From positions 1,809,539 through 1,873,538 of the forward strand of contig MU004235.1 in NCBI GenBank assembly GCA_010405405.1: DNA of 64,000 nucleotides, written 5' to 3'. The DNA is from Microthyrium microscopicum (lineage: Eukaryota). A model generated the notes under the pieces. It worked only from the letters and a program-made list of their open reading frames with translations. It was not told the origin of the DNA and ran no database searches. Below are positions 1 to 57,933 of the stretch, piece by piece. Position numbers and translations under genes: made by a program. Position 1 is the stretch's first letter; each line of letters begins with the position of its first letter.

Positions 1-719
1 AAACTTACTATAACCTAAATAGTTAGTATAGTAATAAGTTTAAAGCTATTAATAAGTTAGAAGGTATATTAAGTATATACTTAATTTATAAATACTATTA
101 GATTAAGCAATAAATCTACTATATATTTTACTATTATTATCCTTTATTTAGTAACTCTATAGTATAAGCATAAGTTTAATATAGGCTAAGAAAATAACGT
201 ATATTTAGTTAACTATAGAGATATAAACTATATTAAGTATATAATAACTATCCTCTATTATTATTTTAGCTTAAACTAAGTATATACTTATTAAAAAAAC
301 TTACTAATAGTCTTATTCTTATAAGAGGAAACTTTAATATATACTTTACCTAGATTCTTCTTAATTAGTAGAATTTTTAGCTAACCTAGCTTATATTTAG
401 TATATATAAAGTATAGGTTACTAGATATATACTTAAAAGAATAAAACTAAGGTTTAAATTATCTAATAGACTTAAAAATATAAGCTATTTTCTACGCTAA
501 GTACGTATAGAATATACTATAAGTATATTTAAATTATAAATAAAGGTTAATTACGTTATATATGCTATTAGTATAATAATAGGCTTAATCTTAAGGTATT
601 TTTAGCCTATACTAAGTATAAAATAATCTAGTATAGGCTAGAGTTATAATAAGTATAAGATAGAAAATAGAATTAAATCTTAAAGAGATAAATATTAAAA
701 GGTTTATTATAGCTTAAGA

Positions 720-1270
720 TAAGTAAGTAACGTAGATATATATTTACGTTACGCTTCTTCTTCTTTAAGTAGAAGACGCTAATTAATACGTATTTATATT
801 ATACTTTTTCTTTTTTAAGAAAAAAACGCTAGTTAATATATACCTTTATTATATAATTTTTTTATTAAAATAAAGAAAGGAAATAAGCATATACTAAAGT
901 TATACTTCTTATTTTTTAAGTATAAAAGGTAGTAAATATATACTTAAGCTACGCTCTTTTTTTCTTAAGTAGAAAAGGTAATAAGTATATAATTAAATTA
1001 TACTCTTTTCTTAAGTAGAAAAGGTAATAAGTACGTACTAAAGTTATATTTTTTCTTCCTTAAGTATAAAAGGTAATAAGTATATATTTTAACTATGCTT
1101 CTCCTTCCTTAAGTATAAAAAGTAATAAGTATATACTTAAGCTACGCTCTTTCTTTCTTAAATAGAAAAGGTAATAAGTACGTACTTAAGCTATACTTCT
1201 TCTTTCTTAAATATAAAAAATAATAAGTACGTATTTAAGTTATATTTCTCTTTCTTTAAGTAGAAATAAT
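720..1270 (+). repeat. Degenerate ~48-49 bp tandem minisatellite, about 11 copies
   Basis: Unit like ttaagtagaaaaggtaataagtacgtacttaagctatacttcttctttc; anchors at ~965, 1011, 1060, 1109, 1157, 1206, 1256. Confidence 0.8.
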
Positions 1271-1958
1271 TATAATATAATACTACTAATAGTTAAAAGT
1301 AAGTATACTTTTATTTAGTACGTACTACTAATTACTTTTAAAGCTTTATTTTATAAATAGTAAAATAAAATTATATATATAGCTTAGTACGTACTATTAA
1401 AATAAACTACGCTTTACTTTATTTTTTATATTAATTTAATTATAAGAACTAGAATAAAGTTTATTTTTAATTTATACTACTTAATACTTTTAAAATAATA
1501 TTATAAAAGTATAAATATAAATTAATAATAAAAGTATAATATATATTAAATCTTTATTTAATTTTTTATAATTTATATTTTTTAATAATTATAGTTAGTT
1601 ATAACTATTAATAAAAAATATAAACTTTATATATAATATTAACTATTTTAATAATATTCTTATATAAGTAAAAAAAAAAAATAAAGCTTTAAGCTTAATA
1701 TATATTACGTATTTCTTTTAAAATATTATTTTATAAAATAAAAAAGAAATTAATAGAAAGCTTAGTACGTACTATAGTACTATTAAACTATTTTATCTAT
1801 TCTTTATATTAATAATAAATAGCTATAACTACTAATTTAAAGCTAATACTTAATATATACTATTATATACTTTTAAAATATTATATAAATTTAAAAATAA
1901 ATTAATAATAAGCTTAGTATATACTATAAACTTACTTTATTTTTTAAGTTATAATATA

Positions 1959-2618
1959 NNNNNNNNNNNNNNNNNNNNNNNNNNNNNNNNNNNNNNNNNN
2001 NNNNNNNNNNNNNNNNNNNNNNNNNNNNNNNNNNNNNNNNNNNNNNNNNNNNNNNNNNNNNNNNNNNNNNNNNNNNNNNNNNNNNNNNNNNNNNNNNNNN
2101 NNNNNNNNNNNNNNNNNNNNNNNNNNNNNNNNNNNNNNNNNNNNNNNNNNNNNNNNNNNNNNNNNNNNNNNNNNNNNNNNNNNNNNNNNNNNNNNNNNNN
2201 NNNNNNNNNNNNNNNNNNNNNNNNNNNNNNNNNNNNNNNNNNNNNNNNNNNNNNNNNNNNNNNNNNNNNNNNNNNNNNNNNNNNNNNNNNNNNNNNNNNN
2301 NNNNNNNNNNNNNNNNNNNNNNNNNNNNNNNNNNNNNNNNNNNNNNNNNNNNNNNNNNNNNNNNNNNNNNNNNNNNNNNNNNNNNNNNNNNNNNNNNNNN
2401 NNNNNNNNNNNNNNNNNNNNNNNNNNNNNNNNNNNNNNNNNNNNNNNNNNNNNNNNNNNNNNNNNNNNNNNNNNNNNNNNNNNNNNNNNNNNNNNNNNNN
2501 NNNNNNNNNNNNNNNNNNNNNNNNNNNNNNNNNNNNNNNNNNNNNNNNNNNNNNNNNNNNNNNNNNNNNNNNNNNNNNNNNNNNNNNNNNNNNNNNNNNN
2601 NNNNNNNNNNNNNNNNNN
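1959..2618. other. Assembly gap (660 N)
   Basis: Run of N characters. Confidence 0.99.
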
Positions 2619-2823
2619 TAAGTTAATTATATAACTATAACTAGGCTTAGTTTATACTTAGTTTATATTTAGTATATATATAGTTAAAGTTAAGTTTATA
2701 TTATTAAATAAGTATATAATTAACTTTCTATAAGTTAATTATATAACTAAAACTAGGCTTAGTCTATACTTAGTTTATATTTAGTATATGCATAGTTAAA
2801 GTTAAGTTTATACTACTAAATAA
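2619..2823 (+). repeat. ~112 bp tandem duplication with RIP-type differences
   Basis: Copies start at 2619 and 2731 (taagttaattatataact...); differences include gtttatac/gtctatac, tatatatatag/tatatgcatag, tattattaaa/tactactaaa. Confidence 0.8.
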
Positions 2824-3019
2824 TATTTATTAGCTAAAAGTTAACTTCTTATTTATTAACTATATAACTATAACTATACTTAGTTTATACCTAGTATATG
2901 CTTAGTATATGCTTAGTATATACCTAGTTTATATCTATATAGAAGTAAGTATATATTAGTAAATAGAACTTATTAGCTAAATAAAAGTTAGAAGCTTTAT
3001 ATTTAGTATATGCTATAGT

Positions 3020-3690
3020 CTTCTTTTTTAAAAATCTTATATATATTAAAAGTTCTACTAAAAGAAAGAGAAGTATAGCTTAAGTATATACTTATTATTT
3101 TCTTTATTTTAATAAGAAAGCGCCTAATAAAGGTAGGTACTAACTAGCGTTTTCTACTTAAGAAAATAGAGCATATCTTAAGTACGTACTTATTACTTTA
3201 CCTATTTAAAAAAAAAGGAATAGTAATAAGCACGTGCTTAGTACCTTTTCTACTTAAAGAAGATAGAGTATACCTTAAGTATATACTTATTACCTTATCT
3301 ATTTAAAGAAGAAGAAGTAATAATAGGTACGTACTTACTACTTTTCTATCTAAAGAAGAGAACGTATAATATAAGTACGTATTAACTAGTATCTTTTACT
3401 TAAGAAAATAAAGTATACTCTAAGTACGTGCTTATTACTTAATCTAGTTAAAAAAGAAGGAGTATTAATAAGTATATACTTATTACCTTTTCTACTTAAA
3501 GAAGAGAGTACGTAATATAAGTATATACTAACTTATATCTCTTAGTAGAGAAGATAGTTTATATCTTAAGCTTATACTTATTATCTTATTTACTTAAAAA
3601 AGAAAAAGTATTAATAAATACGTACTAGCTAGCATCTTTTAGTAAAAAAGATAATTTATATTCTAAGTATATGCTTATTACCTTTATAGT
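3020..3690 (-). repeat. Same ~48-49 bp minisatellite in inverted orientation, about 13 copies
   Basis: e.g. aaagagaagtatagcttaagtatatacttatta (~3065) and ttattaccttttctacttaa (~3480) are reverse complements of the 720-1270 unit. Confidence 0.75.
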
Positions 3691-6600
3691 ATATATTTAA
3701 TATAAGGAAATTTTAACCTCTTAGTATTACTTTAGTATACTTCTTCTTTTAGCTTCTCTTTCCTCTTCTTTCTCTTTTTTCTTTTTATTATTATTATCTT
3801 CTATATTAGTAATTATAAGTAATATAAGTAACTCTACTTTCTTTTTCTTAATTTACTATTTAGCTTCTTATTTTTATAATAATTATTATTCCTTTATATT
3901 CTATATTAGAAGTAAAGAACTTATTACTTTTTACTTTAAGCTATATATATGTAAAGGTAATAATATATTTATAATAGATATAAAATTAGTATAGAAGAAA
4001 AATACTTATAGAGTTAAATTTTAAGTTAATAATACTTATAAGCTTAGCATATACTTAATCTATATTTATTTACTAACTAGAGTAGATAATATTTAAGGTA
4101 GTAATAAAGAATATATTAGTAGTATTAGTAGAAAAGAAGGCATTTTAAAATATACTAAGCTTATATCTAATATATACTTAGTCTAAGTAATAGCTAAGTA
4201 TATATTACTAAGGTAGGCTATTAGATAGTAAGTAGGGGTTAATTTATCTTATATAGAAAGAAACTAACGTTTTATTCTTTACTTATATTAAGTATTCTTC
4301 TAATATATATATTCTAAAAGTTTAGTTACTTCTATTAGCGCTATATAGTTAGTTAGGATCTTAATACTTATTAACTTAAACTTACTATTAAGTTCTTAAA
4401 CTATATAGTATAATCTATATATAGTTAGTATAGGCTATTATAGAATAATATAATATATACTTTAATATTGTATTAAATAAAGATATTTACTTTCTAATAA
4501 TATAATTCTTAATATAATAGCTTAATTTAATAAGGTTATTTATTTATTTAGCAAGTAGCTATTAAGTAATATTAATTTTAGACGTATAAAATATAATTCT
4601 TAAAAGAATCTACTTAATTGTCTTATACTTAAAAAATAATTTTATCTTAGAGTATATTAAGTATATAACTTATATATTACGCTATATACCTTCTTTACTA
4701 TAAGCCTCCTACTAAATAATATTAAGTTTATTTATTAGTACGTACTTAAGAAATTTCTTTATTAGATTTTGCTTTAAATAGACTTTATAGAACTTTAATA
4801 TGTACTTAGTATATTTAATTTAATTTTTACTATTATCTTTTATTTTAAAATATAGTCTAAGACTTAGACTATTATTAGTATATATCTACTATAAGCTTAG
4901 AATAAGTAAACCTTTTACTTATTTTAAGTATATATTAATAGTAATAGCTTAGATTCTAAAGTAGCTAATATAGCCTTACTATATAAGTATATAAGTAGTA
5001 TTACCTAGTTATATAAATAGCTTTATAAATATTTACTAATATACCTTAATAATATTAGTTATTATAAATACGTAGGTATAGACGCAAATTTCTATATATT
5101 AAGGTTAGTATATACTAAACGTAATATAAAATACTTACTTTAGCTCCCTAGATTATAGCTAATAATAAAATATATATTCTAAGGTCTTTATATTATATAA
5201 AATATAAAGTCTATCTAAAATACTAAAACTCTAGTAAATACTATAACTTAAGTATAAGTAAAGCATATAATAAAGTAATTATCTACTAAATTCTTAATAT
5301 ATAAAATTGTCTAAATCTACTAGTATTTAGTACTATTATAGGCTTTATACTATTATATAAAGCGTATCCTTAGCTTATAATTAGCTTATATAGAACCTAT
5401 ATAAAATATAAAATAAACCTTAAAGACTAGTACTATATAGATACTACTTAAGTTATTTATAGTAAATTTATACTCTAATCTAATTAGTATTTATAAGTAA
5501 TAAGTAAATCTTAACTAGACTTATTATTTAAAGAGCTTTATAAACCTCTTAAGCCTTCTAAAATAAAGGAAACCTTTTTATATAAGGTTAGTATATATTA
5601 TAGTTAGAACTAAGTTATACTTAATATATACGTTTTATTATATTAAGTATATTATTTTTAGTAATAACTTAACGTATTAAGTTAGAGTACTCCTTTAGGA
5701 CTAATATAGGTAGTAGTAAATAATAATTATATGCTTTATATATAATAAGTAATATAAATAGATATTTTTACTAATACTTTAATAAGTAAACGTTAAACGT
5801 AGTAGGATATTATTATTCTAGTAGGTCTCTAAATATATAAATTAATATATTTAGTACTTCGTAAGTAACGTTATAGTATAGTAATTAGCTTATTCTTAAG
5901 GTAATATATATATATAACTTAATTAGCCTATAATAAATATAAAGCAAGTTTATAATAAGCTATTTTAATAACTTAAAGTTATATTTATTAGTATTAATAT
6001 AAGTTATAAAGTAAAATTTTCTATTATATAATATATAAGTATAGTAATAACTAAGAAACTAATTCTATATATATTATTAGAAACTAACTAGTTATATCTT
6101 ATACTTAATATACTTTATATTAGTTAAATAATTAGAATATATACTATATATATACTAGAATTAGTTACTTATAAGTTATTATATATAGAGAAGTTAAACT
6201 TTTATATTAATCCTATACTATAATAAAGAAGCTATATTTATTAGACTTAGTATAGGTTAAATATAAGTTAATAATAATATACCTTTTTATTCTTTCTCTT
6301 AACTATACCTCTAGCTTTAATATATATCTTTATAATTTATAAAGCTTATATAACTTATTTATTTTACTAAGATTAATATAAGAGTACGCTAGATTTATAT
6401 TAAGAATATAAAGATATTAATACTAATAGACTTAAATACCTAAGTATTTCTAATAATAATAATAAGTACGTACTATATTATTATTTTTACTAGTATAGAG
6501 TAGAAATTTAAGTATTATAGGCTTAGTACTACTAATACTTTAATAACTAAACTAAATCTAAGTATAATTAGTATATACTTAATATCTTCTATTATCTTAG

Positions 6601-8440
6601 CCTTATGAATAATATAAACTACTTTAAAATATTATTTATTATTCTTAAAGCCTCTAGGTCCTTCTTCTTTATTATAAGTATAAGTCTAAAGTATACTAGC
6701 TATAGATTCTATAATAGAGATACTATATAAAGAATACCTCTATTAGTAATATATAAATAAAGAGAGAATATTATATATATTTAGTATTTAAAGACTTATA
6801 TAGATTTAATATTATTACTATTTATAGTTAATTTATACTAAGTAAGGTATTCCTATATATTATATTAGTATAGTATATACTAAGTAGAGATATATAAATA
6901 GCTTTTAGTTAGCTTTAATTAAATTTAAATACTTACTCTTCTTTATCTTTATTCTTAACTTTTATAAGTTTAGTTTTTAAGAATATAAATAACATAGATA
7001 AAGTATATATAAATAATTAGCTATAAAGCCTAAGTTATAATAAGAGTATAGTTATATAGTAACTTAAATATATACTAAAGTAATAATATAAAATTAATTA
7101 GATTAGTTATAAGGTTTAATATAGCTATACTATTATAATTAAATTCTATATACTAGGATTAGTTTATAATAAGCATATATTAACTATCTACTATAATAAT
7201 ACTTATATTACGTAATATACTAGTTTATATACTTTTATATAAAGGCTATATATACTACTTTTATATATATAATATATAGAGGTATAAATTATATAGAGGT
7301 ACTATGCTACTATATGCTAAGAGTAAGCTATACATAGGCCCTTATGTAGTAAAGACTACTAATTTTTCTAGCGTGATTTTCTAAGGGTTAGCGGAACCAC
7401 GTCGTCGGTCGCGCGGCTTGGCCAGACTGCCAATCGATGTCTTCCTGTTGCGACCGAAAGCTCTCGGAGGACCAGATGGCTTTCTGTCTACAGGAAGATA
7501 ACTTGAGGAGTAGAGCCGAGAGAGGGGCGGGTTATCTTGCCATCTGCCAGTGCCAAATGTAGTATGTTTGGTGGTTGAAGTGCATACACCACAGCCTGCT
7601 TTTGTGTAACCCAACTTTCCTCTCGCAGAATCTCTTCAAGCTTGCGCATATGCTTTGGCGATTCCCACAGTCTCCTCAGTTGACCCGTTAAATCGTCATC
7701 TCAACCGTTGTTGATCCTGCAGCCAATTCCACTTTAGTCTTGGAATCTAGGAGGACTAGGATCCAATCTTGGAGGCCATAATTGCCCATTTGAACCATAC
7801 ATCAACTATCAACTGACAGCCCCTTTGCGCCCTTCTACAACACGACATTCTGATCGCGCCCAGGTCAACTTCGCCTTTTCCACTGTTCAGACCATCTTTA
7901 CCTTGTTGCTCAAAAAGGTTTCCCCGCTTACAGCCTAACTGTCGGTTGCACAACTACCACTGCTTATACGGAGCCCTTGAAAGAGCCGCACACCTTTGGT
8001 CCACGTTGTCCCCGGAAACAATAACGCTTAGACGACTTGTAGGTCACGGAACGTCAACTTCATCTGCGTGCGAACGTGACTCTTGCAACTCATCTATCGG
8101 CCCAATTTTTACCTTGACGAGAAATCGCACTGGTGACCTCGAGGTTCATTGCTATCCCCCGTCCGGTTCTTCCATCCTGGCCGTGATCCTGGAAACCGGC
8201 AGATAAAACCTCCATTCAACAACTTGAACTGTTAAAGCTTGCAGAGTCAGTGCCCGACCTAGCCAGCAATCCAGTGATCCTCTGATCCAGACTTGTCAAA
8301 CCGTCAAGCCCTTTGGCAAACCTTTGACCAACTACTCTACCCAGCTCTGATCTCCAAGGTCCGCAAAGGGGCACGTACGGAAGGGAAGGGTATCTGCGCT
8401 GCCAGTCGCGCTCCGCTTCCTTCAGCGTATATTAACTTTC

Positions 8441-9484
8441 TATAAACAGCGCCTGCACAAGGGTCACCTGCTATAGTTGTCGAGCTTGAGCCATCTTGCA
8501 ATCTGCAATCTGCAATTTGCATTTGAAGCCTCGCGCGCGACTCCGCAGCCTCACTTTGCGACGGCCGCTTGCTTTCGCCCAGTTTCTGCCCACGCCTTTG
8601 CCTGGCGACGCAGAGGCGATTCGCATTTCTACTTGAGCGTGCATCATTGCTTTGCGCGCTCTTTGAGTCTGATACTTTCCTGAACCTGCCCAGTGCTTGC
8701 CGCGCCTCTTTTTGGTGGGTGCAGCGCGCTTGGCTCCATCACAGAAAGAGCCTCATCGTTCCCGAGTCCAAGCTTCCGACTATCTTGCGGCTCAACTCCC
8801 AACTTCCAACTGCCACCAACACACTTGACGTTACGCAGTCGGCACGGTACGTATGTCTCACTGCATATCAACCTCACTTGTTCTGTTTCGAGTAATTTAT
8901 ACTTTTATCATTTTGCTGCTTTTCATCTGCACTCTCTGCTTGTATATCCACTGCACTCCTTCATCTCTGCTACTTGCACAGTGAGGGGTTCACGCTGGTT
9001 CAAGAGTCCAAGACATTCAATTCGCATGCATATCCACCGCCATTGCTCAAGCTGTTGTTTCCAAACCAATTTTGTTTCAACTCTCTATTCCATCACTATC
9101 CAACCTCGTCCTTGTCGGTCTTTATTGTTTCGGCTATTACTGCCAACTCCCTCCACCATGCCCTGTCTTATGTTTCAAGCGCGTCCTATTGTTCTAAAAG
9201 CGAAAAGCGGCTCGTGCGACCGACATCCCGTCTTGCGTAATCTATCTCCATCGCTCAGAGTTCCTGATCGAGGGTCTCCCCTCCATTAAACACTTTGCCG
9301 TGCGTCCGATTCACTCTTGCTATTGCTCTACTATGTCAGGGAGATCGAGCACAGACTTTGCTTGTCGTTCTTGACTCTTTAAATGTCCCTAGCACTTCCC
9401 TACCCGGATTTCTTTTTGTGCGCCTCAGCCTTGTTGGCTACAGCTTGTTCCTGAACATGGCTAACGTTCGTTAAGTTTACTCAG
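8441..9484 (+). promoter_or_regulatory. Putative TATA box and long 5' leader with a ~630-nt UTR intron of the C2H2 gene
   Basis: TATAAA at 8441; donors GTACGT (8847) / GTATGT (8851); pyrimidine-rich interior; branch CTAAC at 9461 with AG at 9475 or 9484; ATG at 9629. Confidence 0.4.
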
Positions 9485-9628
9485 GTACTGTCCTGGGCTA
9501 TTGCCAACAGCCCAAGTTGCTGTCGTCATTTTGAGAGCTGTGTCTTTCAGTGACAGCCTCGTCATTGTCATTCCCTTACAAAAAGCGACATACTCAAACG
9601 ACGTTTATTCAATTGTATCTGGATATCG

Positions 9629-11767
9629 ATGTTAGAACCCGGAGATCCATATGATTCAGATGACCCACTCGCTCCATCCGTCGAGAAACTCATGCCTGTA
9701 CGAATACAACATTCACCGGAGAGATCACCACCTAGGAAGAAGTCGATCCAAGCGCCGGCGAGGCCGTCCCACATTTTCAAGGAAGCTCCGTCGCACGGAG
9801 ACCGGTACTTGCTGAGCTTGTTGGCCCCTAGCAGACCTGATTTAGCCATAGAAGGAGGCGATAAGGTCCTATTTGATCGCCGTTCGGCGTCTCCTGATCG
9901 CAAGGACATTGTCGAGGAGACAAAACACGAGCCTGTAGAGGAGGTGGTGGATTGGGACGAAATATTACATGAAAGGTCCGTCGCAGAACAGGAGCAAAAA
10001 GCAAAGGAAGAAGAGATGAAGCGAAAAGAATTTGAGCGAGAAGAGAGTGAACAGAAGAAAAAGGCAAGAGTTGCAAGTTTAGCGCTGTTCAACGAGACAA
10101 CTGATGGTACTAAAAAGTCCCCACCGATCAAGTTCCCAGATCTAATCACCCCGAGTCCACGGCCATTCTTTGAAAAACCACGGAGTATTCAATCCAAGAG
10201 TCTTGCGCCAAAGCCAACAAAGCCAAATGGACTCAACATTGAACATATAAATACAGAGTATTCGAGGCCCAGGACGGAGACAAACCCGGACTTTCAGAAT
10301 CCTCCTCATACAGCGCATCCTAGAACTGGTCACATTCGGTCAGCACAACGGCGGACTTCAGAACCGGCTATCAGAAGTGGTAGTGGCACTTCTGAACTTG
10401 CCATGTCTTCACTTGGGTCGCACCTGATGGAACCACCAACACCGGACGATCGTCTTCCTACTATCTACAGTCCCACATCCCCAAAACAACTGGGACCCAT
10501 CTCACCACCATCGCAAAAGCTACCATCGATAGGTCGCATGTTTGAAATTGCAGAAAAATCCCAGGCAGAGGCAGCCATAATACAAAGTCGTCAACGCCAA
10601 CAATCTATAAGTTCTTCATCAGCAATAACTCAACCATCACCAACCTTCTTCGGCGCTCCTTCTCCCTTCCCTAACACGACCGGGTTTGCCGCATCTCCAC
10701 CAGCACCAATAGACACCGCTGCTACATCGCCACAAGAATTTGGAAAGACACCTGCTTCGGCCACGTCACCCAGGTTCAATTTACCGTCATCATACCGCCG
10801 CTCTAGCAACGTATCAGACATATTTCATCCTCTACATTCTGCCGGCGCAGCGTCAGAAACACATACAAGTCCCAGCATATTCAGCCCTGCAAGTCAGACC
10901 GGAACTTCAATGACAACCCCCGGAGAGCACGGCGCTTCGTCGGCTGATACTCCTCGAAGCGTACAGCATTTTCAACATCCAGTGACCATGGGTACTCCTA
11001 GTGCCTCAGGAGATTTCCCCATCACGAGTCCCGAATCCATGCGACGAGCCTCAATGAGCGCAATGACTCTTCCTTTACCAAACGGCGCTTCCTCGCCAGA
11101 GGCTCAACATCAAGGGGCAGGGACATACAAATGCGACTTCCCCGGTTGCACAGCCGCCGCGTTTCACACGCAGTATTTGCTCAAGTAAGTTTGAATTGAT
11201 ACCCAGCCGATGACAAATAATGGCGTGCCTTTATCAAACGCGTTGGCTCCCATTTACTACTTTCTATCATGTAGTGATTTATTTCCCATATAAGGTGTTT
11301 GTATGTTAACGGTTCATCGACTACAATGGGAAATAAGCAACTTTTGTTGAGTAGTATCGGAGGTAGCCATCGCAGCCGATAAGGGCGTGACATTCCTTTG
11401 TCAAGCTGTTGAGCCCCTTTATATGTCAATATCTAACCGTGTCTCTAGCTCACATACTACGGTGCATTCGTCCTCCCGTCCACACTACTGTCCAGTCCAA
11501 GGCTGCGCCCGGTCCGTCACAGGATCAGGATTCAAGCGCAAAAACGAGATGATACGCCATCAACTCGTCCACGAATCGCCCGGCTATGTATGTCCATTCT
11601 GTCCGGAACGTGAACACAAATATCCCAGACCTGATAATCTGCAACGACATGTAAGGGTTCACCATGCAGAGATTCAGACTGGAGACAGACGACTGCGCGC
11701 TGTTTTGGACAAAAGGACTAATATAAGGGGCACTGGTCGACGGCGCAAAGGCTCAGCATTTTCGTAG
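9629..11767 (+). CDS. C2H2 zinc-finger transcription factor (three C-terminal fingers); exons 9629-11184, 11449-11767
   Basis: Splicing GTAAGT(11185)...CTAAC...TAG(11448) joins CDFPGC...YLLN-SHTTVH into a complete finger, followed by CPVQGC...HQLVH and CPFC...HVRVHH; Ser/Pro-rich N-terminus. Confidence 0.9.
11185..11448 (+). other. 264-nt intron folding into a long nested hairpin; related to the CCATC/GATGG intron family
   Basis: Nested stems tgacaaa/tttgtca, cgtgcctttatc/gataagggcgtg, tggct/agcca, tactact/agtagta, ttatttcccat/atgggaaataa; shares tggctccca, ttatttcccat and gccatcgca with introns at 15178-16864. Confidence 0.7.
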
Positions 11768-12503
11768 ACGCTCTTTCATCGAATGAGTTGTCTACCATGT
11801 CATGAATTTTAAAAGAAACACGACATCATTTCATATTAAGACAGGCGTTTCTGGCCAGTCTCTCTAGGTTATTGGAGGCCTCATCTCGGCATACTTTGGA
11901 TTTTGATACCCCGGGACTTTGCGTTGTCTAGCCCTTCGTTATTTAGCGGTTCTTGAAATACGTTCTTACCTTCACTTCTTGTTTTCATTATTCCAGCATC
12001 AAAAACTTATGCTCTTTAGTTAGTAGCTACGAGATATACGAATATTGTCAACTCCAACTCCTTATGAGGTGTGCATCTTTCTTTGTAATCAATGCATCTT
12101 AAACATTATATCTGACTCAATCCAAGCCTGAATTAGCAATAACTACCTCAAGCGCATAGTCCATAACTTGGTAGTAAAGTTTCATGGTGCATCAGGCTGT
12201 ACCTTCAGCCTTGCTGCTGCTGCTGCCCACCCCACTATCACGAACAATCCCAGCCCCTTGCATAAATGTCCGTCCCTTGATCCCCGCTATCGCTCCGATT
12301 GTCTGAACGATTTCTGGGAATGCTGGAAATAAAGATCACCAGTTACTAGTACGATAGAACCTTTCCCCATCCTCCTACCCATCCTCCTACGCAACTCCCT
12401 TCCTCGACCTTTTCATTTTTCCAACCACCACCTGCAAATTAGCAGTTCGATATATACCTACCTACCGATATTGGCGTATGACACTAGAAATGCGGCTGCC
12501 ATA

Positions 12504-14435
12504 ATGCGCTTCAATTCCATCGATTTGACACTCGGCGACGTGCGCGGTGGCATCTACAAATTACTCGAACCTAGACCTGACGACGCGGATAACGGTGCGG
12601 ATAACGATGTGGATATAGATGTAGCGAAGAATGGGGGTGATTTTGACGTTGAGGGGTTTACGGTGCGGGAGGAGGCGTTGGTTGGGAAGTTGGATAGAAG
12701 GATTATGCCGTGTTTGTTTGGGATGATTGTTCTTAAGTAAGTTCTTCCGAGGAACGGGATATGTATACTGGGTAAACGGTTGGGATAAGATGGATGGACG
12801 GTGCTATAGGAGAAGTTTGGGAAGAGCTATGTTGCTGATATGTGTGGCAGTTACCTTGATCGTAATAGTCTTGCGAATGCTCGCATTCAAGGCATTGAGC
12901 AGGCTCTGGGTCTTTCTGGGTCGGATTTTAGTACGGCGATTTCGGTGTTCTTTGTGGGATATATTGGGTTGCAGATTCCGTCGAATTTGCTGATTACGAG
13001 GGTTCGGCCGAGCATATATCTTGTAAGCAACGCTCTTATTTCCTTCTAGAGGCTTTGTTGACGGTGGGATTCTAGCCTGGGTGTATGATTGCTTGGGGTT
13101 TTCTGTCTGGCGCGAGCGCGTTTGTGACGAGTTTTAAGGGGCTTGTGATGGTGAGGTTTCTGCTTGGCTTTGTTGAAGCGTAAGTTGCAAATCCCGATAT
13201 GGGAGAGGGAGCTCCAGCTAATGAAAGTTTGTAGGCCATTTTTCCCCGGTGCCTTGTTTTTGTTATCCTCCTGGTATACGAGGAAGGAACTTGCGCTGCG
13301 GACTGCCATTCTGTATGCGGGGAGTTTGTTAGCGGGCGCATTTGGAGGTCTTGTTGGAGCTTCGATTGAGTACTTTTTCAATGGCTTTATGGGTGTCGAG
13401 TCGTGGCGGTATGTATACATGGTATAACGAGAAGGAGTTCACTAACTGATGTAGTTGGCTTTTTATGATTGAGGCGTCGTGTACTATATTGCTGGCCATA
13501 TCCGCCATGTAGGTTGTAGATGAGCTGTTGATGACACTGCTAATTTGAAAAGGTTTATACTGCCAGACTACCCTCACAGCACCAGATTTCTAACACCCGA
13601 CGAGAGAGCGATTGCCATGAGACGGGTGCAAGATCAAAGTGGAGTAAAAGATTCCACCAAAGGCAGTTTGATGACTGGTCTGAAAATGGCTCTCACTGAC
13701 TATAAAGTCTGGCTACTATCGTATTTCTTCCCTCATTATACCAGTAAAATCAGGTCACTGACAATCCAAGGCTTATCATTATCACCAAAACGAGTGCTGG
13801 CGCTGTCACATCTTTCATACCCACTCTTGTTGGAACTTTTGGCCTAGGACGAGTCAACACTCTACTACTAGTCGCTCCTCCTTATGTATGCGCAGCAGCT
13901 ATGACATTGGTCATCTCTCGAATGAGTGATCGACTAGGAGATCGAGCATACCATATCATGGGGCCTATGGTTCTTGCTGCTCTAGGTTTCTTCTTCGCCG
14001 CCGTCACTTTGAATACCGCGGTTCGCTATCTTTCCCTCTTCCTTATGCTAGGTGGCGTTTATGGAAGTTACAACGTCGCTCTGGCATGGATATCTAGCAC
14101 CGTAAGCGGCAATCACTGTCTCTGTAAGCATGTTTGGCTAACCTATCATGCAGTTACCACGACCAGTCGAAAAGCGATCCGCAGCCATAGCAATCATCAA
14201 CACGATGGGCAATGTTGCCCAGATCTACTCACCATACTTCTACCTGCCTGAAAACGGCCCACGGTATCTCCTGGCGATGGTGGCGAATGTATGTTTCTGC
14301 GCAGCGTGTATTGGCGTCACGGTAGTGCTACGGAAATGTTTGAAGCAGGAGAATGAAGATCTTACGAGGCGGAAGTACGATGATGGATACGATATTAATG
14401 AAGTAGATGAGATTGCGTATCGATATACATTGTAA
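12504..14435 (+). CDS. MFS transporter, allantoate/nicotinate permease (Dal5/Tna1-like) family; exons 12504-12736, 12851-13022, 13076-13179, 13235-13408, 13455-13508, 13553-13720, 13771-14101, 14154-14435
   Basis: Family motifs KLDRRIMP, NYLDRNSLANARI, QIPSNLL, RFLLGFVEAPFFPG..LSSWY, LPDYP..TRFLT; canonical GT-AG introns keep the frame. Confidence 0.9.
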
Positions 14436-14904
14436 GACTAATAAAATACAATCATGACTACACGAAGAACCTTTATGTTTGCCCAGTACTGCAAAGTGCC
14501 AAAAGACACTGATATCTTTAGCGCATCCAATACAGGAATTCCAAACAGTTATCATACAAACTTGATACTTAGAAACCAACATAAGCTAATCTAGATACCT
14601 ACCTAGGTAGAAGCAAGAGCAACTCCCACAAAGTAGCAACGACTTTTGAAATGCCCCAGAGTAGCATTGATAGACCCAGCAGAACCAGCAGAACGAAAAT
14701 GACATCGGAAGGGTAAAGGCCAAACTCATTACCTCCTTGAACCTGCCAAGAATCCACGTATGCAGGTTCAGGACTTCGGTCTGTTTGGCGTTGTCTACGC
14801 CAACGTTGTATCTCCTCCCCTTTAACCGCCTCTACCCTCTGTGGGATAGAAGAGTTGGCCAGGGTTGGGGAGGTATGCTGGTCTTCATTGCTTACTGCTG
14901 GAAT

Positions 14905-17021
14905 CTATGGAGTATTAGCAGAGTCATTTTCAGCAGTTACTGGGTGATATAACTTTTGCAGGCGGAGCAGGCGGTTGTCTAACATGAGCTGTTCCTTGTC
15001 CAGTTTGAGGTTTGCGATCTCCTTGCCAGATTCGGCCTTTTGCTTCCCCAAGTCTGTTAGCGCCTTTGCGTGGATGACCTCGAGCTTTTGAATGTGGCTA
15101 TGTAGATTGGAGATCTTGGTGAGGAGAGGTTGGACGCTCATGCTGGGAGCTTCTCCACATTTTTTCTTCTCAAGGGCCTGGGATTGGTTAGTATCGTGAT
15201 GTGATCAGTAGTCATGCGTTGCGTATTGACTGGGTCGTGTGATCTTTTCGTGGGAATTTGGAAAGCACAAACACACGTTATGGAAGCGGTGGGAGCCATC
15301 GAATGTGATGGCGCCCACTACTGCTTTTGGTAATGTCGAAGATTGTCGGAAGGATTGGGATAGGGAGACACTTACATCGCGGTACATTTGGAGTTGCCCG
15401 TTGAGTTTCTTGACCTGCTCGCCTGCGGCAGCCTTGCCATCTACCAACTCTTTCTGGAGCGCTTTCCTACCCTCAGAAGAATCGAATTGTTGTAGCTTCA
15501 AAGCCTGGAATAGTCAGCAAAATGTCAAATCTGAAGGCGATGTGGTGACGACCAAAAATGTCATGGAAGCCATCGCATGTGGTGGGAGCCATCAAATGCG
15601 CTGGCAGCCACCGAAGCTTTAAACCGATTTCGAATGCCTTCAATGTGGTTGGGAGTTAGGGAATCTTACCTGCTCGAGCGACCCATTTGTCCTGCGAAGA
15701 TCTGCGATTGTATTATCTTGGGCACGAATGGTCTCGGCTTGCTTTTCTCCGGCTTCTTCGAGGTCACAGATGGTCTTTTTCAAGGCCGAACTGGATTTTG
15801 TCAGTATAGATTACAACGCAACCAGAGCTAACACGCCATGTGGTGAAACCTTGAAACTCCCATCGCATCTGGTGGGAACCATCGAGTGCGATGGGAAATA
15901 CAAGGTTTTTGATTTCATCGTTTGTCTCTAGGAAATGTGGGTTGACACGGGAGAATCTTACCTAGAAACTGTTAGTATACGATTGTAATCCGAGCTAAAA
16001 CGTCTGAAAAGCGCAAATGATCTCCTCAAGGTAAAACCATAAAACACCCATCGCACTCTATGGCAGCCATCGAGTGCGATGGGGGATTTGATTGTTTTGG
16101 TCCCGTCGGATGTCGTCAAGATATTTGGTTTGGCATGGGGGGAATCTTACATCTTCTCAGAATTATACTTCTCAATATCCACCTTCTCGCTCCAGTAATG
16201 CTTCCGGATCGCGGTAATCTCGTTCTGAGCAGTGGAGAGCTTGTGACGAAGGATCGCAATCTCCTTCTCATGAACCTCTTCCAAGGCTTCATGGGCTTCG
16301 ATCGTCATCAACAGCTGGCATTTGTTAGAGAATGGGGGCAAAACTGAGGTTCGCTGGTAGGCTGGAGAATTCTGGCGTGCTCCCATGAACGTCGATAATG
16401 CCCATCGTCTTTGATAAGCAGGAGATGCTCTTCTTGCCATCACACTCGATGATGACGAGGACATCTGATGGCAAAGAAAGCATCCAATGGGAAATAACAA
16501 GTCCGATGGGGAAAACATGACTTCCAAAATATCGCAGTAGATGGCAGCCATCAAAGCAGCTGGGAAGTAAAATTCACCGAAACAAGCTCATCCACCTCCT
16601 CCGGGATGCTCTCAACATCATCGGAATCACTACCAATCATCTCACAATCATCGCTATCGGACCACTCTACAAGCACTGTTAGCTCAACTCCGGGATACTG
16701 AAATAGCGAAAAATGCACAAAAGTCGAGACCCCGGATTTCGGCCATCAAATCATATGGCCAGAAACGCACTTCATCACGCCCATCGACTCTGATGGACAA
16801 GAAGAGAGCTTATCACAAAACACAGATTATGTGGAATGTTGTTTCCAGGAAGATGAAAACATACCAGATTCAGAAGACTCCGCCAACTCACAGAAGCTAC
16901 CCTCCGAACTGCAGTCAGTACCAGAGACTTCCATTCTGGGCACGACGTTCAGGACCTCTGGCTCTGAGGTCCAGCTCATGGCGCTGCTTGGGCGGGAAGG
17001 AATGGTGGGGATAGATGCCAT
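14905..17021 (-). CDS. Orphan ~310-aa protein with acidic N-terminus and coiled-coil C-terminus; exons 17021-16865, 16666-16578, 16314-16151, 15790-15670, 15504-15376, 15177-14905
   Basis: Six introns, each with GT donor, CTRAC branch and YAG acceptor; splicing gives an uninterrupted 933-nt frame (...YNSEKISALKKTICDLEEAGEKQAETIRAQ...). Confidence 0.75.
15178..16864 (-). mobile_element. Six related long hairpin introns (introner-like element candidates): 16864-16667, 16577-16315, 16150-15962, 15961-15791, 15669-15505, 15375-15178
   Basis: 37-nt core aligns without gaps at 16047-16083, 15859-15895, 15569-15605 and 16528-16564, partially at 15288-15312; CCATC-N6-GATGG unit at 16781-16796; three introns start GTAAGATTC. 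Mobility itself is inferred. Confidence 0.6.
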
Positions 17022-18004
17022 GTTTGGAAACGAGTGTTGTTACTTGGGGTAGTAGTGATTTGCTAAACGGGAAACTGGTTTGGGACAAAATGTAGAAATT
17101 GGAAGTGAGATGGGTGGAAAGGAAAGAAACGAAGAAACAACAGCAGATGGAGGGCTTATAAGGGATTAGATACCTGGAAACGTCACTTCTGGGAAATAAT
17201 TGGTTTGTGTATGGTACAAATGAGCCATTAATTCTCGACTTGTTGGTGTCTACCTGTTGCTATTGTTCGTGGTTGATATTGGGTACCAAAGAACTTTGGT
17301 TCCAGGAAATTGAATGGGATATCGTGAAATGTATAAAACTGTTGAAAAGGTAAGCATCACTTTCTAAAGTTCAAATAGAGTAAGGAACGGCTGGAAAGTT
17401 TGAAATAATTGATTCTGGTATCTGTATATCGTTTCGTTCGTGAGTTGAGCGCATCGGGTGCTTGCTTTTTAAAAATGGAGAGTGGTTTTCTCCACCTCTA
17501 CCAAAGATCTGGCCTTTCAATATGATGCACAAGTAGGTAGGCTAAGAAGGATACCGGTACTACTCTGATGGTAAGGCCATGGCGTGCTGGAGTGAAGCCT
17601 GTTTACCAACCAAATTCCAATTCCCGGGCTCTTCGGTGCTCCCTGGTTGGATTATGGACATCGACAAATATCTACCAATAAATCGAAGGGAGTCAGGTGA
17701 TGCTGGTTTGAGTCGACAAGTTACTCGACAGACTAATGTGGCCAGGTGTAAAACACTAGACAGCGACATAGTGGCCACAGATGGCTTGTGAATGACATGC
17801 CAGGAGTTCAACGACATCGTTGTTGAGAAGCTGGCTTTGGATGTGTTCCCTATGAGAGATTCCGGATCCCTGAGGCTTTATGGGAACCAGTCGACAGGAG
17901 GCCCATACATTTGCTTTTGTAAGATTAGTTTGGAGATTCCGGTCAGGATCAGCATGGCATCCAAAGTCATCTTCTTTGGTGCGGTGGGTCGAGTGAAATC
18001 AGGA

Positions 18005-18687
18005 TCATTTCTCCGGAGCATCAGGTAGTCTTTCAATGACATATTTTCCTGGCGAATGGTCAGTCAAGTCGGTGGGTACAGAGATCGTGACTTACCTCTA
18101 GCGACGGACATGATGGGCACACCCGGCACCCTTCTTATGCGTCTCTTCAGGTCTCTATCATTTGTAGCAACGATATAGATTTTGTGTCTTTGTATCCTGT
18201 CCACAATGCAGTCATCTGCATATACGCCTTTGTGGTCACACTTTAGCCGTTCCCAACGTTCGTCTCGTGCAATGCGCAAAGCTATGCGATATCGAGGACC
18301 TAGCTTTTCCAACTCTGCCATCACACACGATGTGATGATCGGTTTGCAGGTGGCATAGAGACAAGACATCATGCTCTCGAGAAGGTCGAGTTTCTTGGAG
18401 ACCGTATGGCTGAGGAAATTGGTATCGACCAGGACATGATATGGGGGACGGAGGGCGGCGTTGTATTGAAAGAAGAGACTCGAGGATACTTGTGGACTGC
18501 GCATCATTAGTAGCTGTATCTTCCATCGTGAGGGTGGTTAATCTTACACTTCACGGATCACCTCATCAGCCTTTGGCTTTTTCTGAGCCTCTTCATTGGC
18601 AAGAATATTCTTCTTCAAACGGGAGTCTCGCTGTGTGATTTGGAGCTTCTTTTGCGCAAACTTGCGAGTCTTTTTGGCGCGCGACAT
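18005..18687 (-). CDS. FCF1: rRNA-processing PIN-domain protein Fcf1/Utp24; exons 18687-18548, 18496-18096, 18048-18005
   Basis: MSRAKKTRKFA...PQVSSSLFFQYN..PPYHVLVDTNF...CVMAELEKLG...HKGVYADDC...VATND.DLKRRIR..PGVP...YVIERLPDAP; canonical introns. Confidence 0.95.
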
Positions 18688-55634: not shown

Positions 55635-57933
55635 ATGTTTCGCTTATTGTGGAAGAGGCTATATCATTCTAGTTTCGTTTTGGTCCTTTTGATATCAACT
55701 CTTACTAAAGTCAGTTGCAGAACATGTAAGCTTATCGTCAAAATGACCAATAGCTCGACACTAAATCCTGTTCGAATTAGGGGTGAACGAATCCTACAGC
55801 CATGGTGGAACAAATTATAGTGGTAATCCGGTAACCAATGCTACCATTACCACAATCGAAGAAGTATCAGACGAGGAGGCAGAAGCTTGCATGAAAGAGC
55901 TCAGTCTGTGGTCTGCCAGGACAGCTTCAACACAAGTCGAGAATCCCAACGACTATGATACCGTCTTTCGAACCAAGTTCCGTACGACGACCTGGGAATC
56001 ATGGCAGCCTGTAGGAGAAGGCTGCGCCTACACATTGGACGGAATACCTCGTTTTCATTTCACCACCATTTCATCGACGCAAACTATCTTTGTCACCAAC
56101 TTTATAACATATACTACCTTCGAAGTACAGGCGCGAGCCACGTCGGTTGATGCTAGCTTGCCAATACCTCGCCCTACCTGTTCGATGAATGCAAAGTATT
56201 GCTCCCTGCGCAATGAAGAATACTTTGCAAATGCTGCCGCCGGTGCTCCGGAAGACTTTGATAGCTACGACGTTAAGCCATTTAATGCTTACAACGAAGC
56301 CCCACAGTGTCCCTTTGTCATTGACTGTCAGATTGACATGCAAAACGAGGTCATTCTGCTCCACTGGCCCACTGATGAAGCCCATACCGAGCGATGTGCT
56401 GGTAACTCGACTTCCTCAGCTGCAAAATCATCAGGCCTACAATTCAAAGCCGTCACCCCTCGAATCGCCATCATGTCCGCTATCACATTTCGTGGTAACG
56501 ACCTGTACTTTCTTGAAAAACAAGCGTCTACAGTTGGACAGAATTATTCTGAAACTTATAGTTATCGAGAAGAGGGCCAAAGACAGTTTTCAAGCATTCT
56601 TACCGGCCCCTTCACCTTCACATCGCCTTCAATTTATCTTGCGCACCACGCTATCTCCTCCGTCAACTACCTTGAAGCGCCTCAGGGATCCATTATTAGC
56701 CCCGCTGGAATCCTTACCTTGCAGCCCGACGATATACGAACAGCAAGAAGACGCCAGCGCCCGAACATCCATCAGGTACTCTCAGGCGAGTGGGTACCCT
56801 CTGACATGGATGGATCAGGCCGGACTCAGGAAGACATTGTGCCTATGACTTGGCTAGATGCTATGGACCCGGTACCTGCTAGTGTGTACTTTGATTGGCG
56901 AGAGGACTGTGAAGGCAGGCAGACGCATTGTGCCACGATTACAGATGATACGTACCGGCCAAAGTTAGTCCTTCGCAACAGGATATGGAGTTCTATACTG
57001 CCTCAAAAGTATCATCGTTGCGCAAGGTTCGACTTGGTAGATCCTGATATCACACTATCAGCTATAGTGGCAAGCTCTGAGGATCTTCAAGGCCTTTTGC
57101 AGGTGCCTCGGGTATCCAAACCAGTTGCTTCACCATTACGACATTCTATGGCGCAGCCCACGCAAAATGAGGCCGCAGCGCAGATGTCAGACAGAGGCAA
57201 TGCTCTCAACCGCCCAGGTAGCGGAGAGGCACTACCAGGGCACATCGCGACCGCACCAGGGGCTATGGCAACTAATTCGGGTCTGCTGCAGATCGGAGAT
57301 GTCTGGCCCACAGGACCGGAGCTGAACACGGCGATTTTATCACCAGGTGGGCGGCAATTTAATGGAGAGGTTTTGACAGTACAGGCCAAGCAAGAGCTGA
57401 AAGTGGCTATAGACCAGTTCAAGAGAGCAACGGACCCATCACATGGTGCTGAAAACGGGCCAGGTAAAGCTATTAGTGAGACACTGGCGAGCTTTGCCAA
57501 AGATTTCGGTCAACGCATAGATCAAATCCTGTCAACAACCGCAGCAAGCCCGAAGATCAATGATCGCACTATCAGGAAGCTGAGAAACATGATTGAAACC
57601 TTCAATAACGAGCTCCCTAAAAGCTTGTCCTCGATAACTGGCAGTGACGCTACGCAAAGTAACGAACTATCCGCTGGCCTAATCAGCCAAATTGAAGAAC
57701 TCAATCGGTGGACACAAGAGATGCTCCAGACAGATGCTAGTGGCCATGGCTTTATTCAAGGTGAGAGTACGATTCAAGGAAGTACATCGGACGGAAAATG
57801 GTCAGATGACGAAAATCATGGCTCGTCCAGGCTGGACCAGGTTTCTACCTCGAGGAAAGCCAGCGCTAATGTTTTGATCCCTTGGTGGGCTCTGTTTATT
57901 TCATGTATCATAGCACCCGTTCTTTTATGTTAG
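55635..57933 (+). CDS. Large secreted, possibly GPI-anchored protein (~747 aa); exons 55635-55725, 55781-57933
   Basis: Signal-peptide exon spliced via GTAAGC...TAG in frame with the 716-aa ORF; Cys/Thr-rich region; hydrophobic C-terminus WWALFISCIIAPVLLC. Confidence 0.75.

Follow-up and report, generated by a model that had tools for sequence, protein, structure and literature searches.

Fungal introner-like elements (ILEs) were reportedly described by van der Burgt in 2012. Where Collemare and colleagues characterise them (2013, 2015; PMC3609843, PMC4457414), ILEs are multi-copy, longer than regular introns, stably folded and equipped with canonical splicing signals, and they are tied to intron gains. 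A survey of thousands of genomes gives Microthyrium microscopicum an 'ie' value of 0 (Supplementary Table 4) and treats ascomycetes as an outlier with few signatures of target-site duplications (TSDs) or terminal inverted repeats (TIRs) (PMC9860276). A literature search pairing the species with introner returned no paper, and in the texts it reached the species was named solely in the supplement of this survey. Self-complementary introns have been described elsewhere. For the symmetrical introns of Hypoxylaceae, section 3.5 of the report on them judges symmetry unnecessary for splicing (PMC8469720), and splicing of yeast introns is promoted when bases on the donor side pair with bases on the branch side and so reduce the donor-branch distance (PMC2536676). 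Here we describe a 264-nt, hairpin-bearing intron in a C2H2 zinc-finger gene of M. microscopicum, located in a stretch of 64,000 nt (contig MU004235.1, positions 1,809,539 to 1,873,538, forward strand) that we call the window; positions below are counted within it.

An original prediction, made from the letters of the window, had placed this intron in the same hairpin family as the introns of a coiled-coil gene 4 kb away, and had proposed that the hairpin could act as a splicing switch or as a Dicer substrate giving microRNA-like RNA (milRNA). The explanation that we favour, with a probability of roughly 0.6, is an old intron of about 50 nt that received a 205-nt self-complementary DNA insert, likely a decayed foldback element or one like a miniature inverted-repeat transposable element (MITE), which would be tolerated by virtue of its own hairpin.

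A spliced 264-nt intron in the first zinc finger

The zinc-finger gene lies on the forward strand. Its first exon (9629..11184, 518 codons and 2 bases) ends inside finger 1 with the residues ...FHTQYLL and the letters ...TTG CTC AA. The spliceosomal intron that follows (11185..11448, 264 nt, phase 2) has the donor GTAAGT at 11185-11190, the branch site CTAAC at 11433-11437, which lies 12 nt 5' of the AG acceptor, and a final TAG with its AG at 11447-11448. Exon 2 (11449..11767) starts with C TCA CAT...; it completes finger 1 (SHTTVH) and then encodes fingers 2 and 3, followed by a basic tail and the stop codon. Translation of the joined exons gives ...YKCDFPGCTAAAFHTQYLL-N-SHTTVH... and then two further C2H2 fingers: finger 1 is interrupted between L518 and S520, that is, between the Cys pair and the His pair, and the Cys and His columns are invariant across 18 aligned relatives. 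The exon 1 translation was 100% identical to a 624-aa protein recorded as 'hypothetical protein BT63DRAFT_440161 [Microthyrium microscopicum]' (P0002), and the sum of 518 and 106 residues, 624, is consistent with the same splice. Used alone as a homologue query, exon 1 matched nothing beyond its own protein.

One sequencing run, kept as contigs and not recorded as RNA, holds this stretch. A contig of 5773 nt from this run (depth 368) joins position 11184 to 11449 ('skips 264, GT..AG'), covers 9500-11184 and 11449-12066, and shows 0 letter differences from the window over 9500-16666. Because 14 segments with GT..AG or CT..AC borders are missing from it, we read this contig as a spliced RNA product (the RNA contig). 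It confirms both exons, alongside translation, the protein match of exon 1 and the relatives' alignment of exon 2. The intron is real and its boundaries are exact to the base, as originally predicted, and it is about five times as long as its neighbours: nine ordinary introns in the same 7.6 kb measured 44-114 nt. The spliced form alone was seen in that run, and the intron interior was uncovered by any contig, which is uninformative on retention.

An in-frame TAA at the donor (AAG|TAA), to which the original prediction had drawn attention, is present, and an unspliced reading would stop there, before the first His of finger 1. The special meaning attached to it did not stand: the stop is generic, since it arises from a GTRAGT donor after AA in this phase, and several relatives also read 'K*V' through the same site.

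Intron position among relatives

The finger domain is 70-82% identical across 985 Pezizomycotina proteins. With the alignment of the 18 relatives, which are drawn from these proteins, as query, 80 metagenomic loci encoding relatives were obtained, each read through the finger region. An intron at the identical codon and phase (...CTN AA|GT...AG|N TCN CAY), directly after the L518 codon, was found in 15 of the 80 loci (9 distinct). The nine distinct introns measured 45, 51, 51, 54, 54, 57, 57, 57 and 60 nt, so that intron length at this position in relatives, a comparison put forward by the original prediction, is ordinary and not hairpin-length. The best matches of the loci with the codon-519 intron were to proteins bearing the names Cladosporium (97.6%), Phaeosphaeriaceae (86-93%), Aureobasidium (85-86%) and Letharia (91%); loci without it matched mostly Sordariomycetes.

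Introns were also found elsewhere in the domain. Seven of the 80 loci (5 distinct) have an intron of 48-54 nt in phase 0 after Q515, three codons upstream, and the relatives that carry it resemble Leotiomycete proteins. Many relatives (L008, L009, L013, L019, L020, L025, L027, L035, L048, L062, L065, L079 and others) have an intron of 48-78 nt after residue 584 (...LQ|R), in the finger 3 region; the gene in the window does not. Introns thus occur at three or more sites in the finger domain, each of them patchily occupied.

The age of the codon-519 position was judged from the recurrence of the same site and phase across diverse relatives, not from a resolved tree: a tree built on the 88 residues of the finger region had good support for only 4 of 71 branches, which is too little resolution to date the intron. 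From these sequence comparisons we argue that the position is old and common to other Pezizomycotina. Its occupation by ordinary short introns in relatives argues against an introner having created the intron.

An imperfect palindrome inside the intron

Most of the intron is an imperfect palindrome of 205 nt (11204..11408), with the ends CAGCCGATGACAAA... and ...TTTGTCAAGCTG and with arms that are about 69% complementary. Complementarity is bounded by CAGC at 11204-11207 and GCTG at 11405-11408, at distances of 19 nt from the donor G and 40 nt from the acceptor, and the ends form the TIRs CAGC(CGA)TGACAAA and TTTGTCA(A)GCTG. All five stems listed in the original prediction exist. Those at 11211-17/11397-403, 11255-61/11350-56 and 11279-89/11326-36 are perfect, 11224-35/11378-89 has 12 pairs, of which three are G.U, and 11240-48/11365-73 has 8 of 9 pairs with one U.U. 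A central loop of 36 nt (11290..11325) is enclosed by the innermost perfect stem of 11 bp (11279-11289/11326-11336).

Folding was compared with dinucleotide shuffles, and the intron was better than its shuffled controls. The minimum free energy (MFE) was -75.8 kcal/mol for the whole intron (z -3.73) and -69.4 kcal/mol for the core 11204-11408 (z -5.24); 0 of 200 shuffles were as good in either case. Per nucleotide, the intron reached -0.287 kcal/mol versus -0.06 to -0.23 in the nine regular introns. The inner stems had a pairing probability of 1.0, and the arm has about 85 paired positions. As background, 92 evenly spaced 264-nt segments were folded with 20 shuffles each (mean z -0.08, sd 1.32): a z of -3.73 or lower was seen in two, one of them an intron of the coiled-coil gene. 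When MFE was regressed on G+C, the intron ranked only 85th of 952 segments (-1.26 SD), its raw energy being unexceptional. This ranking was set aside as a weak null, since strand-skewed composition accounts for its wide residual SD (11 kcal/mol), and per-segment shuffles were used instead.

In blastn the palindrome matched its own reverse complement over 11211-11403 (62% over 200 nt, E 2e-6). Among inverted repeats in 7400-64000 it was the longest (193 nt aligned) and third in score, after two intron hairpins of the coiled-coil gene. The first 7.4 kb of the window were left out of this ranking because, at 14-28% G+C, they are self-complementary through composition alone. That part (1-7400) is very A+T-rich, with a run of 660 N at 1959-2618 and pervasive low-grade self-complementarity, and looks like the remains of repeats degraded by repeat-induced point mutation, adjoining the gene-rich part.

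The antisense strand of the intron folded equally well (-72.7 kcal/mol, z -3.75). Alignment of the arms gave 77 Watson-Crick pairs, 8 G.U pairs on the sense strand, 6 A.C pairs (G.U on the antisense strand only), 20 transversions and 23 gap columns. The three sense-strand G.U pairs singled out in the original prediction are real in stem 11224-35/11378-89, but the overall count of 8 to 6 shows no strand asymmetry. Equal folding of both strands and the balance of G.U and A.C indicate symmetry of the DNA and give no hint of an RNA structure under selection. The mismatches have the pattern of a formerly better palindrome under neutral decay. An Rfam scan of 9000-18000 at E <= 1 gave no match within 11185-11448.

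Size, ends and splicing of the proposed insert

Removal of the palindrome and of one 8-nt flank leaves 264 - 205 - 8 = 51 nt, within the range of both the neighbouring introns (44-114 nt) and those of relatives at the same position (45-60 nt). That this remainder has the size of a normal intron is our main reason for thinking that the palindrome was inserted into an intron already present. A candidate 8-bp TSD stands at the exact ends of complementarity: TTGATACC on the left (11196..11203) and TTGAGCCC on the right (11409..11416) are identical at 6 of 8 positions. Equally spaced pairs of 8-mers matched as well in 306 of 55,500 cases (0.55%) in the gene-rich part. The flanking repeat is at most suggestive of a target-site duplication. 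An 8-bp TSD together with ends starting in CAG would be reminiscent of the hAT superfamily; no family or parent transposase is assigned. When up to 3 mismatches were allowed, the 14-nt end motif matched the window at 11 places versus 5 expected, and no second element was found. The sole match with 2 mismatches, at 56314-56327, was rejected as a second element, being ordinary-looking sequence.

The hairpin is predicted to shorten the distance between donor and branch point. From donor G to branch A the linear distance is 251 nt; by the shortest path, with the core hairpin alone, it is 48. In the MFE structure, in which the branch-site region pairs just 3' of the donor with a probability of about 0.6-0.7, the distance falls to 6, and in 500 sampled structures the median was likewise 6 (5-95% 6-21, maximum 41). 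From this model, and by analogy with yeast introns, we infer that the insert may be tolerated by zipping itself aside, which would keep splicing efficient.

Comparison with the introns of the coiled-coil gene

The coiled-coil gene lies on the reverse strand with its ATG at 17021. In the six-intron model its introns, cc1 to cc6, measure 198, 263, 189, 171, 165 and 198 nt. The introns cc3-cc6 are clearly alike and have a common central hairpin of about 66 nt, and an nhmmer profile of these four, run against the window, recovered cc2 at E 0.002 and cc1 at E 5. The same profile met the zinc-finger intron at E 1.3 in antisense and E 13 in sense, and a profile of all six introns met it at best at E 0.42, again in antisense. 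No match below E 0.3 was found by blastn between the zinc-finger intron and the coiled-coil introns.

Smaller likenesses were calibrated against natural sequence. The two words on which kinship had been proposed, tggctccca and ttatttcccat, are present in both, but no more than chance requires: a shared word of at least 11 bases occurs in 59 of 904 background segments (6.5%). An antisense 13-mer in common with cc2 was equalled in 9 of the 904. The best local alignment (score 17) pairs the antisense stretch 11350-11315 with cc4. It was reached by 0 of 300 dinucleotide shuffles for the cc4 pair and by 4 of 300 for the maximum over 12 comparisons; it was also reached by 17 of 902 overlapping natural segments at about five places, coding sequence at 18120-18300 included, and the top background segment (score 19) reads as an ordinary coding exon.

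The layout differs as well. Introns of the coiled-coil family start with GTAAGATTC, continue with the central hairpin of about 66 nt (CCCATCGCA...TGCGATGGG) and then reach the branch site. The zinc-finger intron does not match this layout: it starts with GTAAGTTTG, its hairpin spans 205 nt, and TGGCTCCCA comes before TTATTTCCCAT, the opposite of the order in the family. The similarity in length to 'intron 2' (264 versus 263 nt) was correctly noted in the original prediction and carries no weight, because the 263-nt segment is not removed in the RNA contig.

By these sequence comparisons, membership in the coiled-coil family, and with it the occurrence of that family in an unrelated gene, is not supported. 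The original prediction had named a fold no better than shuffled controls, together with the lack of a significant profile match, as telling against it; the second was found and the first was not. Any distant kinship with the coiled-coil introns, if it exists, would point to an antisense orientation.

The coiled-coil gene and neighbouring transcripts

The RNA contig spans 9446-16666 and takes in no fewer than three genes. The zinc-finger gene and a multi-intron gene at about 12125-14150 lie on the forward strand, the coiled-coil gene on the reverse strand. A single contig across both strands points to overlapping or abutting transcripts in an unstranded assembly.

Several features of the coiled-coil gene were seen in passing. 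Two family introns of 189 and 171 nt at 15791-16150 (-), both starting with GTAAGATTC, abut without an exon between them (...TCTAG|GTAAGA...) and are removed in the RNA contig as one skip of 360 nt (15790->16151); they look like a tandem pair of introner-like units. The 263-nt 'intron 2' at 16315-16577 (-) is kept in the RNA contig, whose piece 16151-16666 is continuous. The open frame of the six-intron model requires its removal; either its splicing is inefficient or this part of the gene model is in error. An additional, ordinary intron of 49 nt at 14905-14953 (-; joint 14904->14954, CT..AC) removes the stop codon of the six-intron model. The intron hairpin core in about 15583-16082 is matched at 90-95% by two further contigs from this run, whose flanks are unlike on both sides, which makes this core a dispersed, transcribed repeat. 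On the hairpin of the third coiled-coil intron, at 16041-16089 (+), a sub-threshold Rfam match to mir-392 was seen (24.7 bits versus a gathering threshold of 62, E 0.34), most likely a generic hairpin match. The coiled-coil gene is the more interesting object here, with tandem family introns in a species that a published survey scores as introner-free.

Discussion

We propose insertion rather than gradual growth as the origin of the extra length, and a transposon as its nature. An ancestral intron of about 50 nt, at a position common to other Pezizomycotina, would in this lineage have received the 205-nt self-complementary element (11204-11408), with a possible 8-bp target duplication. The element would most likely have been a decayed foldback or MITE-like non-autonomous transposon. 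In the pre-mRNA the arms of the insert would pair, and the extra 205 nt would be zipped into one long hairpin. Donor and branch point would then have roughly the spacing of an ordinary short intron in fungi, and splicing would still be accurate. The hairpin would be a by-product of DNA symmetry, not an RNA structure selected for regulation.

A number of points weigh against this explanation. The flanking repeat is imperfect (6 of 8), and 26% of positions pass once the test tolerates offsets of 0-2 nt, lengths of 6-10 nt and 2 mismatches. The 64-kb window contains no second copy of the palindrome, and none with a likeness of 90% or more was seen in the contigs of the run. Finger 1 is without an intron in 58 of the 80 loci. 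On the tree, the intron state changes 8 times and is not clustered, 58 of 500 shuffles being as low, and the protein of the window groups with P0003-P0005, its closest relatives, whose DNA was not included in the loci read. The role of the hairpin in splicing is a matter of prediction and analogy alone.

The alternative that survives best, which we nevertheless hold to be unlikely, is that the palindrome formed in place when some 90 nt of the intron were copied in inverted orientation, through a replication template switch or hairpin-primed repair, and then decayed, with no mobile element involved. Complementarity along all 205 nt, and not just at the termini, would be expected from such an event; the lack of another copy in the window or in the run's contigs fits it too, and the flanking repeat may be due to chance if its parameters are left free. 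Yet the 51-nt remainder is already a complete normal intron, so that an in-place duplication would have had to begin from sequence which the intron no longer needs, and the 8-mer repeat falls exactly at the ends of complementarity, as only 0.55% of equally spaced pairs do.

We find it harder still to accept that an introner-like element, of the coiled-coil family or of a family of its own, made the intron de novo at a site that bears an intron elsewhere, in a parallel gain. The exon junction CTCAA|C is a poor proto-splice site, for which the consensus is MAG|R. The best matches to the coiled-coil introns are antisense, which ill suits an element carrying its own splice sites, and the evidence for these matches is divided: the score of 17 against cc4 is rare among shuffles, but natural background reaches it, coding sequence included, and the coiled-coil profiles give only E 0.42-13. 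In the gene-rich 56 kb, each of the three top-scoring inverted repeats falls within a long intron, and two of these introns belong to the coiled-coil gene, which speaks for this reading; the position and phase shared with ordinary 45-60-nt introns in nine distinct relatives, and the single copy found in the window and the run's contigs, speak against it. From the literature, the intron has the three ILE traits of length, stable predicted structure and canonical signals (as set out in the relevant part of PMC3609843), and ILEs are described as landing within 15 bp of the regular intron positions of other species (Collemare et al., PMC4457414). Against this stands the introner-free score of the species in Supplementary Table 4 of PMC9860276.

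A variant of this idea, which we regard as a long shot, is that the palindrome descends, in decayed form, from the introner-like hairpin family of the coiled-coil gene and landed, probably in antisense, inside an existing intron. If this were true, fungal introner-like elements would move as DNA, regardless of strand or exon context, and only their sense-strand insertions into exons would appear as 'new introns'.

That the hairpin is a functional RNA, either a splicing switch setting the level of the full-length three-finger protein or a milRNA-like precursor, is the least probable reading, since its strong arm, the truncation before the first His on retention and the predicted pairing of the branch-site region just after the donor are set against the lack of sense-strand bias in energy or in G.U versus A.C, arms of about 69% complementarity with 20 transversion mismatches as in neutral decay, a plain 45-60-nt intron that serves relatives at the same site, the lack of an Rfam match in the intron at E <= 1 and a donor stop that is generic for GTRAGT donors in this phase.

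Insertion of a MITE or foldback element into an intron is a well-known event, and on that reading this case is routine and relevant mainly to annotation. For introner hunts, an intron cannot be assigned to a family just because it is long, folds into a strong hairpin and has a few words in common with it; position conservation in relatives and similarity tests calibrated on background are needed. The intron is also a clean natural example for asking if self-complementarity lets a fungus with introns of about 50 nt splice one of 264 nt.

Compared with known systems, the intron resembles ILEs in its Dothideomycete host, its length above that of regular introns, its stable predicted fold and its canonical, spliced GT, branch and AG signals. 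It differs from ILEs in that it is not detectably multi-copy (in the 64-kb window and, at 90% or more, in the contigs of one run), is not significantly similar to the ILE-like family that lies 4 kb away, and occupies a position common to other fungi and not newly gained.

With the sister (stw)introns of Hypoxylaceae, as the relevant sections of Fekete 2021 (PMC8469720) describe them, it has in common a canonical intron with imperfect inverted-repeat halves (about 73% there and about 69% here), and both could form double-stranded intron RNA. In the same description, the Hypoxylaceae introns have proliferated as families at new positions; they lack flanking duplications, and their repeats reach the termini, whereas here a single copy was found at an old position, with a repeat that stops short of the termini and a possible flanking duplication.

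The zipper stems of yeast RPS17B, in the part of Rogic 2008 that deals with them (PMC2536676), likewise pair sequence downstream of the donor with sequence upstream of the branch site, and here the predicted distance falls from 251 to 48 or fewer. The yeast effect was tested by mutagenesis, while in M. microscopicum it is predicted, and the stem would be a by-product of the insert without sign of conservation.

In form the palindrome also resembles MITE and foldback inserts. It departs from typical ones in the lack of a second copy in the sequence searched and in its imperfect TSD (6 of 8). Like them, it is short (205 nt), non-coding and complementary throughout, with inverted ends (CAGC...GCTG), a candidate 8-bp flanking direct repeat, a harmless intronic site and a hairpin that forms on either strand.

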